64,000 nucleotides of DNA from an uncultured bacterium (GTDB lineage Bacteria > Sysuimicrobiota > Sysuimicrobiia > Sysuimicrobiales > Sysuimicrobiaceae), in contig CAYTFH010000015.1 in assembly GCA_964437095.1 (NCBI GenBank), positions 851 to 64,850 of the forward strand, written 5' to 3'. Shown one piece after another: positions 19,801 through 27,214 of this stretch (position 1 is the stretch's first letter; every line of letters starts with the position of its first letter). A model generated the notes under the pieces. That model made no database searches. It saw only the letters and a program-made list of their open reading frames with translations, and was not told the origin of the DNA. Made by a program: the position numbers and the translations under genes.

Positions 19801-20700
19801 TTGCGCCGACGCCAAGCCGGGCCCCTGTGCGGCCGGCGGCCCCGCGCGGCGGGCCCCGGCGGGTTGCTGCTGGTGGCCGTCCTGTTCCTGGCGGGCTGCC
19901 AGCCCTACGTCCGCGTCAGCACTGCGGCCCGGGAGGCCTACCAGCCCCTGGAGGGGTTCGCGGTGCGCATGAACTTCATGCCCCGTAAGCCCGACGCGGA
20001 CGCGGGCAAGAAGATCTACGAAGCCCGCTGCGCCGTCTGCCACGGGCCGGAAGGGCGCGGGGACGGCCCCATGGCCCAGCAGCTCACCGCGCCGGAGAAG
20101 AACCCGTACACGGACTTTCTGAGCCTGTTCCGGATCCACCCGAAGACGGAACCCCTGCCGAGCCGTCCCGCGCGGTTCAACAACCTGGACCAGATGCGGC
20201 TGAACGCGCCCTTTGCCATGTTCGAGACCATCGCCCGGGGCCGGCCCCACACCGCCATGCCGGGGTTCCAGCACCCCGCCTACGGGGCCGTGGACGGGGG
20301 CGAGCCGAGGTTGTCCGACCAGGAGATCTGGGGCGTGCTGTTCTGGGAGTGGAGCCGGACCACCAGCCGTGAGCGCCTGGCACAGGGGCGGCGGATCTAC
20401 AACGAGATGTGCGCCAGCTGCCATGGGGTCCGCGGCGACGGCAACGGCCCGGAGGCCGCGAAGATCCGGGAGGAAGTGTGGACGTGGGCGCGGGGCGTGG
20501 GCCCCGGTATTTTCACCGACCGGGACTGGATGGCGTACCGTAAGCCCACGGAGCTGTACCAGAAGGTGGCCGAAGGGGTCCGGCGCCGCGGGCTGGAGCT
20601 CATGCCCGCGTACGCGGACAAGCTCACCCCGGACCAGATCTGGACCGTGGTAGAGTACCTGTGGACGTTCGTGTACACGCCTCCCCGGGAGATGCGGTAG
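19801..20700 (+). CDS. dihaem cytochrome c lipoprotein
   Basis: two CxxCH motifs (CAVCHG, CASCHG); lipobox LAGC; TTG start after AGGAGG (alternative ATG at 19666). Confidence 0.75.
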   Translation: MRRRQAGPLCGRRPRAAGPGGLLLVAVLFLAGCQPYVRVSTAAREAYQPLEGFAVRMNFMPRKPDADAGKKIYEARCAVCHGPEGRGDGPMAQQLTAPEKNPYTDFLSLFRIHPKTEPLPSRPARFNNLDQMRLNAPFAMFETIARGRPHTAMPGFQHPAYGAVDGGEPRLSDQEIWGVLFWEWSRTTSRERLAQGRRIYNEMCASCHGVRGDGNGPEAAKIREEVWTWARGVGPGIFTDRDWMAYRKPTELYQKVAEGVRRRGLELMPAYADKLTPDQIWTVVEYLWTFVYTPPREMR

Positions 20701-20719
20701 GCGTGCCGAGGGTGAACGG

Positions 20720-21364
20720 GTGAACCGGAGGACGTTCCTCAAGCTCCTGAGCGCAGTGCCCGCGTTGGGGGCCCTGGGCGCGTTCCTGGCCCCGGTGCTG
20801 CGGTACCTCAAGCCGAACCTGGAAGCCGGCTTGGGCGTCCCCAAGGGTAAGGTGGTGCCGGACCTGGCCGAGGGCGACCTCCCCAAGGGGGAAGCCCTGC
20901 CCATCGCCACCCTGGAGGAGCTGCGGGAGCCGTGGTCCAGCAAGTTCTTCGTGTTCACGCAGAAGTACCCCCAGTACACGCCCGAGCAGGCGAAGGCGGC
21001 TACGGTACCCGGGGTGGCCGTCAAGCTGCCGTGGAAGCTGTCGTTCCCGGGCTACAAGGGGGGCAAGGAGCCCACGGACATCGTGGTCTTCTCCCGCATC
21101 TGTCCGCACCTGGGCTGCATCTTCAACTACGTGCCCAACTGGCGGGAGGTGACCGCGGGCTACGGCGGGTACGTGCCGCCGGAGGACCGCCGCCACGGGC
21201 TGATGGCCTGCCCGTGCCACCTGTCCATCTATGACCCCGCGGACCGGGAACTGCCCGGTCGGGTGCTGTCGGGCCCCGCGCCCCGCCCGCCCCGGTTCTT
21301 CACCTACGAGATCCGCGACGGGGTCATCGTGGTGACCGGCGCGGAGCCCGGCGGGATCGCCTGA
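20720..21364 (+). CDS. Rieske [2Fe-2S] subunit of a cytochrome bc/b6f-type complex
   Basis: Tat motif RRTFLK; CPHLGC...CPCHLS Rieske boxes. Confidence 0.9.
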   Translation: MNRRTFLKLLSAVPALGALGAFLAPVLRYLKPNLEAGLGVPKGKVVPDLAEGDLPKGEALPIATLEELREPWSSKFFVFTQKYPQYTPEQAKAATVPGVAVKLPWKLSFPGYKGGKEPTDIVVFSRICPHLGCIFNYVPNWREVTAGYGGYVPPEDRRHGLMACPCHLSIYDPADRELPGRVLSGPAPRPPRFFTYEIRDGVIVVTGAEPGGIA

Positions 21365-21376
21365 GGGGGCTTCGGG

Positions 21377-22525
21377 ATGTGGGACCGGCTGCGGGAGTGG
21401 TTCCGGGAGCGCAAGGAGAAGCTGGACCTGTTCGACGAGACCCGCGTGGACCGGCAGGACAACCCCCTCTACATCCTCGGGCAGATCGTGTACTTCTCCT
21501 GGATCGCGGTGGTGGTGAGCGGCATCCTGCTCATGATCTGGTACGAGCCCACCGCCCACGGCGCGTACAACTCCATCCTCCGGATCCAGCGGGAGATCCC
21601 CTTCGGCTGGCTCATCCGCGGCGTCCACAAGTACGGCGCGGACATGCTCATCCTGGCCATCACCCTCCGCATCTACCGGATGTACTTCCTCGGCGAGTAC
21701 AAGCGGCCCCACGAGCTGTCGTGGATGATCCTGTTCGGGTCCCTGGTCCTGGCCATGATCTCCGGCCTCACGGGCTACCTGCTCATCTGGAACCAGCGGG
21801 CCTTCTGGGCCGCCAAGGTGGTGCTCACCGTGGCGGTGTACCTGGACCAGTTGCCCCTGGTCGGCCAGACGCGGTTCGGCAGCGCCATCGCCTTCGCCTT
21901 CCTCGGTGGGCCCGCGGAGGGGCAGGGGACCCTCACCCGCTTCTACGCCATCCACTTCGGCATCTCCGCCCTGTTGCTGGTGGCCACGGAGGTGTACTTC
22001 TACTTCACCCGTAGGCGCCGGTTCGTGCTGTCGCCTGCGGCCCTGGTGATCCTCGCCCTCATGCTGGTGGTCACCAGCTACGTGTTCCCCGCGGAGATGG
22101 GCCGGCGCGCCGATCCCAACCGCACCCCGCTGCCCATCCTGTCGGACTGGTACTTCCTGGCCCTGTACCAGTACGTGAAGTACACCCCGCCCCTGTGGGC
22201 GGGCCTGGGGCCGGGCCTGCTCATCGCGTACGGCATGCTGGTCCCGTTCCTGGACCGCAGCAAGGGCCGCCGGCCCTCGGAGCGGCCCTTCTTCACCGTG
22301 GTGGGCGTGATGGCCCTCACCTACTTCCTGGTGTTTACCGCCCTGATCATGTTCAACATCGCGGTGATCGGCCGGGACCCGCACGTGGTGCTGCTGGTCA
22401 CCGCGGCCACCCTGACCTTGGGCCTGGCGCTGGAGCTGCGCTACCGGAAGCGCAGGAAGCTGGCGGAGGCCGCCGCTCCATCTCCCGCGCCGCGGCCCGC
22501 CCCGGCCCGGGCCACGGCGGGGTGA
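21377..22525 (+). CDS. cytochrome b (b6 fused to subunit IV), atypical: n-side haem ligands absent
   Basis: FGWLIRGVHKYGAD and TLTRFYAIH align to PetB, but the second His of each pair is Arg and Tyr; SDWYF subunit-IV motif. Confidence 0.85.
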   Translation: MWDRLREWFRERKEKLDLFDETRVDRQDNPLYILGQIVYFSWIAVVVSGILLMIWYEPTAHGAYNSILRIQREIPFGWLIRGVHKYGADMLILAITLRIYRMYFLGEYKRPHELSWMILFGSLVLAMISGLTGYLLIWNQRAFWAAKVVLTVAVYLDQLPLVGQTRFGSAIAFAFLGGPAEGQGTLTRFYAIHFGISALLLVATEVYFYFTRRRRFVLSPAALVILALMLVVTSYVFPAEMGRRADPNRTPLPILSDWYFLALYQYVKYTPPLWAGLGPGLLIAYGMLVPFLDRSKGRRPSERPFFTVVGVMALTYFLVFTALIMFNIAVIGRDPHVVLLVTAATLTLGLALELRYRKRRKLAEAAAPSPAPRPAPARATAG

Positions 22526-22529
22526 AGCG

Positions 22530-26115: not shown

Positions 26116-26125
26116 GAGGCGTCGG

Positions 26126-26587
26126 GTGAGGGACCCTGTGATCCCTGTGGTGCGGTTCGTGGTGGCCGCGGTGCTGTGCGGTTTTCTGGCCACGGTGCTG
26201 CTGCCGAGGCTGGACCCCGCCGTCCGACCCGCCCGCGCTGCGCCCCTCGGGCCGCAGATCCAGCGGGGCCGGTGGGTGTACGTCCGTGAGGGCTGTGTGG
26301 CCTGCCACACCCAGCAGGTGCGGGCGGTGGAGGCCCGGTTCGGGGTGGTGCGGGGTCAAGGGGACGTGGGAGAAGCTTCCGGGCCCGCCCAGTACGCGGG
26401 ACAGAACCCCGTTCTGCTGGGGTCCTTGCGGCTGGGCCCGGACCTATCCCACGTGGGGGCCCGCAGCCAGGACCCCAACCAGCTGCGGTCGTTGCTGCGG
26501 TCCGGCAGCGTGGGGATGCCGCCGGTCCGGTACCTTTCGGAGTCCGAGCTGTCGGACCTGGTGGCGTACCTGTTAAGCCTGCGCTAG
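26126..26587 (+). CDS. cbb3-type oxidase subunit II (CcoO/FixO)-like monohaem cytochrome c
   Basis: VYVREGCVACHTQQVR and RLGPDLSHVG match CcoO signatures. Confidence 0.8.
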   Translation: MRDPVIPVVRFVVAAVLCGFLATVLLPRLDPAVRPARAAPLGPQIQRGRWVYVREGCVACHTQQVRAVEARFGVVRGQGDVGEASGPAQYAGQNPVLLGSLRLGPDLSHVGARSQDPNQLRSLLRSGSVGMPPVRYLSESELSDLVAYLLSLR

Positions 26588-26623
26588 GACCATGTCCGAG
26601 AAAGGTTCGCGGTTGACGGAATT

Positions 26624-26664
26624 GGGGTCCCCGAGGATCGCGCCTGCGATTCTCGGGGCGGTCT
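26624..26664. repeat. copy 1 of a ~40-nt palindromic intergenic motif GGGGTCCCC..GCGATTCT.GGGGCGGTCT
   Basis: imperfect hairpin CCCCGAGGATCGC/GCGATTCTCGGGG; second copy at 45415..45453. Confidence 0.6.
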
Positions 26665-26674
26665 AGGAGGAACC

Positions 26675-27214
26675 ATGGCGGAGCAGGCCCAGACCGTCCG
26701 TCCCTCTCGGTGGCTGCTGGCCCTGTACGTCCTGCTGCCCCTGTGGGCCGTGGCGTACCTGTTCGTGGCGGGAGGCCTGGTGCAGCCGGAAGTTCAGCCC
26801 GTGGCCCGCACCGTGGAGGGGGTCTCCGTGGGAGCCGGGCCCGTGGTGGACGACCCCGAGCACGTCATGGGCATCCTGGCGGTGGTCCCCGAGGACGCCC
26901 GGGACGACCGGCCGCCGCGGCCCATGACCGAGGCCATGCTGGCCCAGGCCAAGACCCAGTACGACACCCTGTGCGCCGTGTGCCACGGTCCGGAGGGCCG
27001 GGGCGACGGGCCCGCGGGCGCGGCGCTGAACCCCAAGCCCATGAACTTCCACTACCGGTCCTTCCAGGAGCGCATGCCCGTGGGCGCCACCCACTGGGTG
27101 ATCAAGAACGGCCTCGGCAACACCCCGCGGCGCAGCGGCATGCCCGCCTTCGGCCAGCTGCCCGACGACCAGATCTGGGCCCTGGTGGAGTACGTGCGCC
27201 GGCTGGGCCGCTAA
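26675..27214 (+). CDS. membrane-anchored monohaem cytochrome c
   Basis: N-terminal TM, CAVCHG, distal Met (SGMPAF); AGGAGG RBS. Confidence 0.8.
   Translation: MAEQAQTVRPSRWLLALYVLLPLWAVAYLFVAGGLVQPEVQPVARTVEGVSVGAGPVVDDPEHVMGILAVVPEDARDDRPPRPMTEAMLAQAKTQYDTLCAVCHGPEGRGDGPAGAALNPKPMNFHYRSFQERMPVGATHWVIKNGLGNTPRRSGMPAFGQLPDDQIWALVEYVRRLGR

Follow-up and report, generated by a model that had tools for sequence, protein, structure and literature searches.

What becomes of the low-potential electron of quinol in a Rieske/cytochrome b complex in which the cytochrome b that carries the quinol-oxidising site has lost the ligands of haem bH, and in which a second cytochrome b is fused to a ferredoxin domain? 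The question is raised by a cluster of 11 closely packed genes (positions 19801-27214, all on the + strand, with all open reading frames, ORFs, intact) in a DNA stretch of 64,000 nucleotides, hereafter the window (contig CAYTFH010000015.1 of assembly GCA_964437095.1; G+C content 72%). The source organism belongs to Ca. Sysuimicrobiota (CSP1-3), its closest genomes being those of Ca. Tepidifontimicrobium and Ca. Sysuimicrobium, and metagenome-assembled genomes (MAGs) of this lineage also bear the labels Armatimonadota, GAL15, ANGP1 and Bacillota. In the usual view, Rieske/cytochrome b complexes are symmetric homodimers which return the low-potential electron to quinone. The answer that we tentatively favour here, giving it somewhat less than an even chance, is that the two cytochromes b of the cluster, cytb1 and cytbFd, form an obligate heterodimer from which this electron exits through an iron-sulfur (FeS) arm ending in an MvhD-type protein, in other words a quinol bifurcation. 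What we say of function beyond the cofactor inventory is inferred from the sequence. A first-pass annotation of the window had already listed the parts of the cluster, and every item of its inventory proves correct in the ORFs and in the Pfam and NCBIfam domain calls. The genes are the following:

19801-20700, + strand: dihaem cytochrome c lipoprotein (cyc2h); Pfam Cytochrom_C, E 1e-22
20720-21364, + strand: Rieske [2Fe-2S] protein exported by twin-arginine translocation (TAT); TAT motif RRTFLK
21377-22525, + strand: cytb1, cytochrome b with b6 and subunit IV fused; Pfam Cytochrome_B and Cytochrom_B_C
22530-22793, + strand: tmA, small membrane subunit of 87 residues; no Pfam family
22790-22984, + strand: tmB, two-helix membrane subunit of 64 residues; its start overlaps the tmA stop by 4 nt
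22986-24161, + strand: cytbFd, cytochrome b fused to a 2x[4Fe-4S] ferredoxin domain; Cytochrome_B and Fer4 dicluster
24171-24596, + strand: MvhD/FlpD-type [2Fe-2S] protein, cytoplasmic; PF02662
24593-24709, + strand: tmC, single-helix peptide of 38 residues; C-terminal motif FGL[IV]AE[AF]
24724-26115, + strand: cofactor-less CcoN, a pseudo-catalytic cbb3 subunit; COX1, 84 bits
26126-26587, + strand: CcoO-like monohaem cytochrome c with an N-terminal membrane anchor; PF02433 FixO, E 6e-15
26675-27214, + strand: membrane-anchored monohaem cytochrome c; NCBIfam matches, and cytochrome c Pfam families on the identical gene of locus L005

The core of the argument lies in the non-equivalence of the two cytochromes b, which are paralogues, collinear through helix F at 33% identity. 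In cytb1 the haem bL (bp) ligands H84 and H193 are kept, and alignment to a solved cytochrome b6 places Arg98 for His100 and Tyr207 for His202 at the ligand sites of haem bH (bn), which bears out the earlier description of a "mono-haem-type" cytochrome b. Position 98 is occupied in 59 orthologues, by Arg in 58 of them; 57 of 61 orthologues carry Phe, Tyr or Leu at 207; and an Arg occupies the bH site in all six loci from outside the phylum (L071, L088-L091 and L092; the L-numbers, L001 to L093, are labels for compared loci and contigs). The same protein carries a Qo-type (PEWY-equivalent) motif, PILSDWYFLA, of which P-I-L-S-D-W-Y-F is conserved in 60-61 of 61 orthologues. In cytbFd both pairs of haem ligands (H84, H98, H185 and H199) are present in 71/71 orthologues, the PEWY equivalent is degenerate (P/A-x-D-V/W-F-F), and six transmembrane helices (A-F) precede the ferredoxin domain with its two invariant CxxCxxCxxxCP motifs. 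By the four-histidine definition of the cytochrome b of the bc1/b6f superfamily, cytb1 falls outside and cytbFd inside; since the Qo-bearing subunit has no bH and the second subunit has all four His, the complex is to be regarded as an atypical member of this superfamily. The ratio of non-synonymous to synonymous substitution rates (dN/dS) is 0.03-0.05 for cytb1 and 0.03-0.11 across the cytochromes b. We argue that such complementary losses in two paralogous genes favour a heterodimer over a homodimer. A haem cn was also considered and rejected: the position of Cys35 is held by I, L, V, T or H in cytb1 and by Y or F in cytbFd.

The ferredoxin domain of cytbFd starts in the N-side loop that follows helix F and is therefore predicted to be cytoplasmic on the basis of the b6/subunit IV topology. 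This topology rests on collinearity with b6 and subunit IV, and a crude hydropathy count, which miscounts haem-binding helices, agrees with it roughly. The first-pass annotation had expected FeS carriers on the cytoplasmic side, and the architecture now attaches them to the four-histidine cytochrome b. The next carrier is a clear member of its family: MvhD scores 87 bits against a cut-off of 22.3 for PF02662, aligns to chain D of the Mvh-Hdr structure (5ODC_D, E 6e-15), and has Cys22, Cys51, Cys76 and Cys81 in 68-69 of 69 orthologues. Moreover, two successive stretches at the C-terminal end of the NCBIfam profile of HdrA2 are matched, residues 571-639 by the ferredoxin domain and 635-770 by MvhD. 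Across CSP1-3, little or no variation is seen in the eight cluster cysteines of the ferredoxin domain or in the four cysteines of MvhD, and the outside lineages keep them too; the dN/dS of cytbFd and MvhD is 0.04-0.15. As these cluster ligands are preserved in an operon whose CcoN has lost its own, they point to redox cofactors under maintenance. Among those ORFs of the window that were scanned, and up to 10 kb away in the related loci inspected, MvhD has neither an HdrA-type flavoprotein nor a hydrogenase or formate dehydrogenase as a companion.

On the high-potential side, the Rieske protein has invariant ligand and disulfide motifs (CPHLGC...CPCH, 56/56 orthologues), its Pfam match being weak (18.2 bits for a cut-off of 20.3). 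Its box II holds the hydrogen-bond pair Ser169 (56/56) and Tyr171 (55/56), and such Ser/Tyr donors raise the potential of the cluster (PMC12954380). The dihaem cytochrome c gene starts with a TTG codon at 19801, preceded by an AGGAGG ribosome-binding site; the signal peptide of the lipoprotein ends in LFLAGC, the lipobox Cys is found in 50 of 52 orthologues and both CxxCH motifs in all 52, and a weak NCBIfam match (bc1_QcrC_actin) relates it to QcrC, the dihaem subunit of the actinobacterial bc1 complex.

Is this assemblage a chance juxtaposition? Counts of loci below refer to 68 species-representative loci of Ca. Sysuimicrobiota, only those contigs that reach far enough being scored for each feature. 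MvhD directly follows cytbFd in 61/61 loci and cytb1 stands ahead of cytbFd in 53/53; a Rieske gene, in single copy, is present in 51/51 and the dihaem cytochrome c gene in 48/48; a polyprenyl synthase gene follows the cluster in 52/53. Chance is excluded because order and content are conserved in some 70 independent genomes, and the comparison of gene orders, which the first-pass annotation had proposed as a check, thus reveals one conserved unit, encountered again in the six outside loci. Its terminal part stands otherwise. The CcoN, CcoO and cytochrome c genes, which the annotation had counted as a component of the device, are indeed present here, but they occur in 10/53 phylum loci and, as set out below, are the fossil of a cbb3 oxidase. 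The slot which these three genes fill in the clade of the window, between MvhD/tmC and the polyprenyl synthase gene, is filled in three loci of other CSP1-3 families by a gene for a cupredoxin-like lipoprotein of 138-152 residues with a C..PGH....M motif (L046, 12655-13113; L061, 11757-12209; L022, 11773-12189).

This cluster is also the sole Rieske/cytochrome b complex detected in the genomes of the phylum, and it is expressed. In the KEGG orthology (KO) table of PMC11604079, cytochrome b (K00412) is represented by two genes in 44 of 45 MAG columns and by one in the remaining column, and the same table lists no further complex III KO, Rieske included, alternative complex III having no KO there; it is this pairing of two K00412 genes per MAG with no other complex III KO that singles the cluster out. 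K00412 transcripts are non-zero in 10 of the 12 data columns of the supplement, a figure given at the level of the KO and not of the gene. The first-pass annotation had envisaged a composite of canonical complexes, for instance a normal qcr operon elsewhere with the present genes unexpressed or pseudogenised, and these data, together with purifying selection on the genes, describe the opposite situation. Table S5 of the same paper reports ccoN (K00404) in 41/45 MAG columns, and the ligand-less CcoN is probably counted there as a cbb3 oxidase. The papers on the phylum report aa3-type oxidases, denitrification genes in Sysuimicrobiaceae and aerobic respiration. Nowhere do they name Rieske, cbb3 or complex III, and mvhD, hdrA and quinone biosynthesis are missing from their supplement. 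Sulfide:quinone reductase is encoded in 109 of the 112 genomes of the phylum analysed, and the available accounts have autotrophy encoded by three of its five families.

An exhaustive profile search with cytbFd extends the picture beyond the phylum. It finds about 10 further short-form clusters (at 50% identity) and more than 250 further cytochrome b-ferredoxin clusters (50% identity) at E < 1e-30, the majority of the 150 best having 450-790 residues, and homologues bear Vampirovibrionales and Chloroflexi names. The Bacterium HR21 locus L076, a 31% match, yielded no ORF that passed a GC3 filter. The six outside short-form loci are L071, L088, L089, L090, L091 and L092, the last being an Obscuribacterales MAG (Melainabacteria). 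They read, in one direction, CcoN, CcoO(P), cytochrome c, Rieske, cytb1, two small membrane proteins, cytbFd and MvhD; a trailing small membrane protein is found in five of the six, being absent from L092, and FixS is annotated in three. The operon of Obscuribacter and related MAGs, to which L092 corresponds, belongs to the same family as ours down to the bH-less cytb1, and includes FixS; it has a canonical CcoN at its head, whereas in the window the cbb3 genes come after MvhD and tmC, CcoN is ligand-less, and CcoO and the c-domain are separate genes. All the components of this combined operon are thus found in the window in a permuted order, with the cbb3 block after tmC. As the outside loci carry a CcoN-headed operon, with a canonical CcoN in five of them, the local cluster is a rearranged descendant of a combined cbb3-complex III operon. 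Melainabacteria are described as having a "complex III/IV combination", petB/petC adjoining O2 reductases, as being devoid of CO2 fixation pathways, and as possessing a partial complex I that resembles one interpreted as ferredoxin-driven (10.1101/328856). A tie between the cluster and autotrophy was considered, and is excluded by the same operon being found in Melainabacteria.

The long forms are homologous to cytbFd over its whole length (E 1e-40 to 1e-64). MvhD is fused in 7 of the 9 that were scanned, and an MvhD or SCO1 domain is present in 8 of the 9; a further transmembrane helix and a periplasmic domain are seen in the four whose sequence was read from end to end, or in two of these four as regards the fusions of 532-723 residues in L086, L087 and L093. 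NCBI names such homologues "hydrogenase iron-sulfur subunit". They adjoin COX1, SCO1 and CtaB genes (L086, 8001-10172; L087, 4617-10121; L093, 8001-9599; 532-723 residues), their neighbours including genes of haem-copper oxidase or nitric oxide (NO) reductase type, and the fusion of L093, a gammaproteobacterial locus, has NirS genes around it. In L087 a NuoF-like gene lies between two copies, and a separate Rieske/cytochrome b cluster lies about 5 kb away on the other strand, adjoining a gene that resembles the NAD(P)-binding flavoprotein of anammox type. No Rieske/cytb1 partner stands beside the long fusion in three of the four contexts examined. These proteins may be the "subfamily H" cytochromes b of obscure role (PMC5600118), and may also correspond to orf1 of the norSY-senC-orf1 clusters (PMC4940428).

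The label "pseudo-CcoN" of the first-pass annotation describes the local subunit well. A profile of its family aligns with solved CcoN chains from end to end (E 1e-56), and its AlphaFold2 (AF2) model (pLDDT 84, pTM 0.89) has the 12 transmembrane helices of the CcoN fold and superposes on 3MK7_A with a TM-score of 0.89. All six His and the Tyr of the active protein are gone, the sites H60, H207, Y251, H257, H258, H345 and H347 being held by A, A, G, S, A, T and A, and the NCBIfam ccoN profile (TIGR00780) gives 82 bits for a cut-off of 583. That the protein still binds haem is excluded, there being no invariant His in the family. The loss can be followed as a series: all seven residues are kept in L071 and L089-L092, only Tyr251, His258 and His347 in L088 (2888-4303), only His60 and His207 in L055 (a CSP1-3 genome, from 2889), and none in the clade of the window. 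With a dN/dS of 0.09-0.22 between close relatives, within a range of 0.03-0.28 over the six cluster genes tested, the local CcoN is a fossil of a true cbb3 oxidase, yet one kept under purifying selection. Since a ligand-less protein keeps both its fold and its selection, its retention would be best explained by a role as scaffold for CcoO and the complex, and would lend indirect support to a physical association of complexes III and IV. The companions of CcoN keep their haem motif or kinship: CcoO has its CxxCH in 14/14 orthologues, with 153 residues for 219 profile positions, and the monohaem cytochrome c is a homologue of the c-domain with which fused CcoO/P proteins end, with a 34% tblastn match within the CcoOP gene of L071. 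An orthology of this cytochrome with cytochrome 579 was rejected (63 bits, cut-off 280).

The model that we favour brings these observations together. The cluster would be the complex III of the lineage in an asymmetric form, together with what is left of a cbb3 oxidase whose genes formerly stood first in the operon. A homodimer of cytb1 would strand the electron on bL, so that cytb1 must in all likelihood pair with cytbFd, across the usual dimer interface and with one Rieske protein. Such a pair would have a single Qo site and a single FeS arm, with two haems of bL type and one of bH type. Quinol would be oxidised at the single Qo site. The first electron would pass through the Rieske protein to the dihaem cytochrome c and, in this clade, to CcoO and the monohaem cytochrome c, thence to oxidases or reductases encoded elsewhere. 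The second could only travel from bL of cytb1 to bL and bH of cytbFd, and would then pass through the two [4Fe-4S] clusters to MvhD, and finally to a cytoplasmic flavoprotein or carrier encoded elsewhere. The pseudo-CcoN, which would no longer reduce O2, would serve as a membrane scaffold.

Several features incline us to an exit of electrons through the arm. The loss of bH from the Qo-bearing subunit removes N-side quinone reduction, the avoidance of which is the open problem of the bifurcation proposed for anammox bacteria (PMC12954380); this loss would solve that problem. The Rieske box II keeps the potential-raising Ser169 and Tyr171, and in anammox bacteria the same Ser/Tyr feature, with a midpoint potential (Em) above +300 mV in a menaquinone organism, makes the energetic case for generating NAD(P)H (PMC12954380). 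Sulfide:quinone reductase and autotrophy give a use for lifting quinol electrons. Finally, the known systems with MvhD or a cytochrome b::FeS module run electrons toward a cytoplasmic flavoprotein. In Mvh-Hdr, Fdh-MvhD-Hdr and QmoABC, a donor module feeds an MvhD-type or cytochrome b::FeS module, which in turn feeds such a flavoprotein.

Other facts weigh against this model. Transfer from bH to a [4Fe-4S] cluster is normally uphill and opposed by the membrane potential. An HdrA-, GltD/NfnB- or NuoF-like acceptor was looked for and not found in the scanned parts of the 64 kb window and up to 10 kb away in the related loci inspected, although one may be encoded elsewhere in the genome. In Melainabacteria, which do not fix CO2, the operon answers no evident need for lifting quinol electrons. 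The AF2 model of cytbFd, computed from a 14-sequence alignment, is too poor to place the ferredoxin domain (pLDDT 54, pTM 0.50), and both heterodimer and supercomplex are deduced from gene content only. The long-form relatives, with their neighbouring electron-sink genes and, in L087, a NuoF-like gene, are more naturally understood as devices for cytoplasmic input. Such an input is the substance of the main rival reading, which we consider possible though unlikely: the arm would be an electron entry, with reduced ferredoxin, or NAD(P)H via a flavoprotein, feeding MvhD, the two [4Fe-4S] clusters and bH of cytbFd, from which quinone at Qi or the high-potential chain would be reduced, a built-in counterpart of the ferredoxin:plastoquinone reductase activity discussed for cytochrome b6f. 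This direction has the merit of being thermodynamically downhill. It would suit the more than 250 cytochrome b-ferredoxin clusters, with their MvhD or SCO1 domains and their COX1/SCO1/CtaB electron sinks, the gene for a NuoF-like, NADH-binding subunit flanked by the two fusions of L087, and the Melainabacteria, which combine the operon with a partial complex I like the ferredoxin-using one (10.1101/328856). It leaves unexplained, however, why bH, and hence any Qi site, has been lost from the Qo-bearing subunit in every lineage, and why the Rieske box is of the high-potential type; its donor enzyme is not encoded nearby, and the known MvhD modules feed flavoproteins and not the reverse.

The complex might also run an ordinary Q cycle, as a heterodimer with one Qo and one Qi site, the ferredoxin domain, MvhD and pseudo-CcoN being structural, assembly or regulatory appendages. 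One Qo site and one bH/Qi site suffice for such a cycle, no other complex III is recognised in these genomes, which are described as those of aerobic respirers, and the pseudo-CcoN itself proves that inactive relics can persist in the operon. But the near-invariance of the ferredoxin-domain and MvhD cysteines and the low dN/dS of their genes are unlike the free loss of the CcoN ligands, and we regard this reading as improbable. Very improbable, in our opinion, is the view that independent enzymes are simply encoded together, namely a Rieske/cytb1 enzyme, a quinone-linked cytbFd/MvhD unit and a CcoNO remnant: the existence elsewhere of long cytochrome b-ferredoxin-MvhD proteins with neither Rieske nor cytb1 implies that this module can act alone, and the CcoNO(P) block is lacking from most phylum loci, only 10/53 having it, but a Rieske/cytb1 enzyme with bL only would have no acceptor for the second electron, cytb1 and the short-form cytbFd stand together in all 53 phylum loci scored and in the six outside loci, and the gene junctions are near zero or overlapping (in order, 19, 12, 4, -4, 1, 9, -4, 14, 10 and 87 nt). 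As for genes in decay or unexpressed, with respiration ensured by other complexes, the loss of every catalytic ligand of CcoN is the one sign that would suggest it, and intact ORFs, the dN/dS values of the six genes, conservation across distinct phylum-level lineages, the reported K00412 transcripts and the lack of an alternative cytochrome b KO in that table make it hardly credible.

How does the proposed heterodimer compare with known systems? By concept it is closest to the anammox complexes R/b-2 and R/b-3, while its ancestry is shared with the complex III/IV operon of Melainabacteria. The anammox complexes (Kuenenia Kuste4569-4574 and Kustd1480-1485) share with it a b6-type Rieske/cytochrome b core with FeS-bearing cytoplasmic subunits, the Ser (and Tyr) hydrogen-bond donors of the Rieske protein, and a proposed quinol bifurcation in which the low-potential electron goes to a cytoplasmic acceptor (PMC12954380). 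They differ by a large operon-encoded NAD(P)-binding FeS flavoprotein, a cytochrome b modelled as a homodimer and hexa- and octahaem cytochromes c, whereas the local cluster has two unequal cytochromes b, a fused ferredoxin, MvhD and a (pseudo-)cbb3 module, and Pfam and NCBIfam reveal no NAD(P)-binding FeS flavoprotein of anammox type in it. The [2Fe-2S] MvhD-type and 2x[4Fe-4S] electron connector is that of the Mvh-Hdr MvhD, of the HdrA2 C-terminus and of QmoABC. QmoC is a cytochrome b fused to FeS domains, which links menaquinol to a cytoplasmic enzyme. The cytochrome b of QmoC and HdrE is, however, of NarI type; that of cytbFd is of b6/bc type, in a Rieske complex with no HdrA, QmoA/B or hydrogenase alongside. 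The long cytochrome b-ferredoxin-MvhD fusions are homologous to cytbFd and mostly have MvhD in cis; they differ in length (450-790 residues). The actinobacterial bcc complex (QcrCAB) likewise replaces c1 by a dihaem cytochrome c, but there QcrB, a dihaem cytochrome b of canonical type, forms a homodimer and lacks an FeS arm, and the local proteins score far below the cut-offs of these families.

In P. aeruginosa and R. capsulatus, bc1 and cbb3 are encoded in separate operons. Their bc1-cbb3 supercomplexes (8SMR and 6XKW) physically join Rieske/cytochrome b to cbb3, an association which here is suggested by shared operons and by the retention of an inactive CcoN. In structure as in sequence, the local CcoN finds some of its best matches in their CcoN chains, but the two joined complexes are canonical, with a homodimeric dihaem cytochrome b and an active CcoN. 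The cluster misses defining features of each known type: bH in cytb1 for bc1/b6f, the metal ligands for cbb3, and the operon-borne NAD(P) flavoprotein for the anammox type. The claim of the first-pass annotation that it was undescribed has to be narrowed, a complex III/IV combination having been noted in Melainabacteria; the bH-less cytochrome b, the ferredoxin fusion and MvhD are not described in that paper (10.1101/328856), where the terms "MvhD" and "FlpD" do not occur and the proteins are labelled b6f subunits. The searchable literature holds no specific description of a Rieske complex with cytochrome b-ferredoxin and MvhD, an earlier account in Soo et al. 2017 being possible, and the heterodimeric, bH-less and FeS-armed design appears undescribed there.

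Could the present operon be the first natural example of an obligately heterodimeric Rieske/cytochrome b complex, bifurcating quinol electrons to a cytoplasmic low-potential acceptor, in a phylum, CSP1-3, where no other complex III is detected, and also in Melainabacteria, the sister group of Cyanobacteria? Put in this full form the claim is a doubtful one, but its consequences deserve to be stated. The long-standing exception to the return of the low-potential electron to quinone, the delivery to NAD(P)+ by anammox complexes, is still a proposal, facing the problem of N-side quinone reduction. If our reading is true, the operon is a natural design that solves this problem by gene duplication and complementary loss, with Qo and bL in one subunit and bH and the FeS exit (or entry) in the other, and it may show how quinol electrons reach cytoplasmic carriers or arrive from them. 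The design is not rare, being that of the sole complex III recognised in a phylum widespread in soils and hot springs, and is found also in Obscuribacterales; it bears on claims of a "b6f complex" older than Cyanobacteria. If the K00404 entries are ligand-less CcoN, high-affinity O2 respiration has been over-called in the phylum. The pseudo-CcoN, retained under selective constraint, illustrates clearly how a catalytic subunit may be converted into a scaffold.

The three small ORFs of the cluster are genuine genes, the motifs of tmA and tmC being kept across distant lineages. The motif Y..ADRR.GRVRRR.ALYER of tmA is common to L001 and recurs with conservative substitutions in L089, L091 and L092, and tblastn gives matches to tmA in many loci. 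For tmB, identity is 52-90% in 10 loci of the clade of the window and 39-46% in 6 other phylum loci, and in L001 tmA and tmB are fused into one gene of 145 residues. tmC is a called gene on an identical contig, its motif being kept in the CSP1-3 loci and in L088-L091. Another combination of the same parts, the third, is offered by the metagenome contig L003 (1-11847), where a ligand-less CcoN and CcoO accompany a canonical b6 (CLGG motif, four His), subunit IV, a Rieske protein and a dihaem cytochrome c; this b6 cluster is preceded by a free-standing 2x[4Fe-4S] ferredoxin of 125 residues and by ccm genes.

The immediate flanks of the cluster contain:

16571-19642, + strand: ccmA, ccmB, ccmC, (ccmD) and ccmE; Pfam ABC_tran and CcmB, with Cytochrom_C_asm and CcmE at the same place in L001
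19647-19718, + strand: promoter-like hexamers (19647-19676), then a GC-rich hairpin with a T-run (19695-19718); consensus scan only
27281-28273, + strand: polyprenyl diphosphate synthase, directly downstream; PF00348 on identical contigs

The ccm genes are conserved neighbours upstream of the cluster, and the product of the polyprenyl diphosphate synthase presumably leads to the quinone side chain. The gap of 158 nt between ccmE and the first cluster gene holds the hexamers and then the hairpin, which may be a terminator of the ccm genes, a leader structure or a product of chance; terminator scans gave just weak matches within genes, and the sole Rfam match in the window is a tRNA gene (61196-61269, + strand). 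Further upstream of ccmABC(D)E lie hemA (glutamyl-tRNA reductase, 8965-10302) and hemB (5-aminolaevulinate, ALA, dehydratase, 11722-12963), so that haem synthesis, cytochrome c maturation, the respiratory cluster and polyprenyl synthesis follow one another in the same direction over about 19 kb. An ORF of 621 residues with no Pfam family (15318-17183, + strand) comes after the haem genes and ahead of ccmA, and L001 and L002 have, at the corresponding position, a gene of 523 residues, likewise outside any Pfam family. After the polyprenyl synthase gene comes a pair formed by a histidine kinase and an ANTAR response regulator (28357-30143), kept at this place in L001 and on the identical contigs, which could possibly regulate the cluster.

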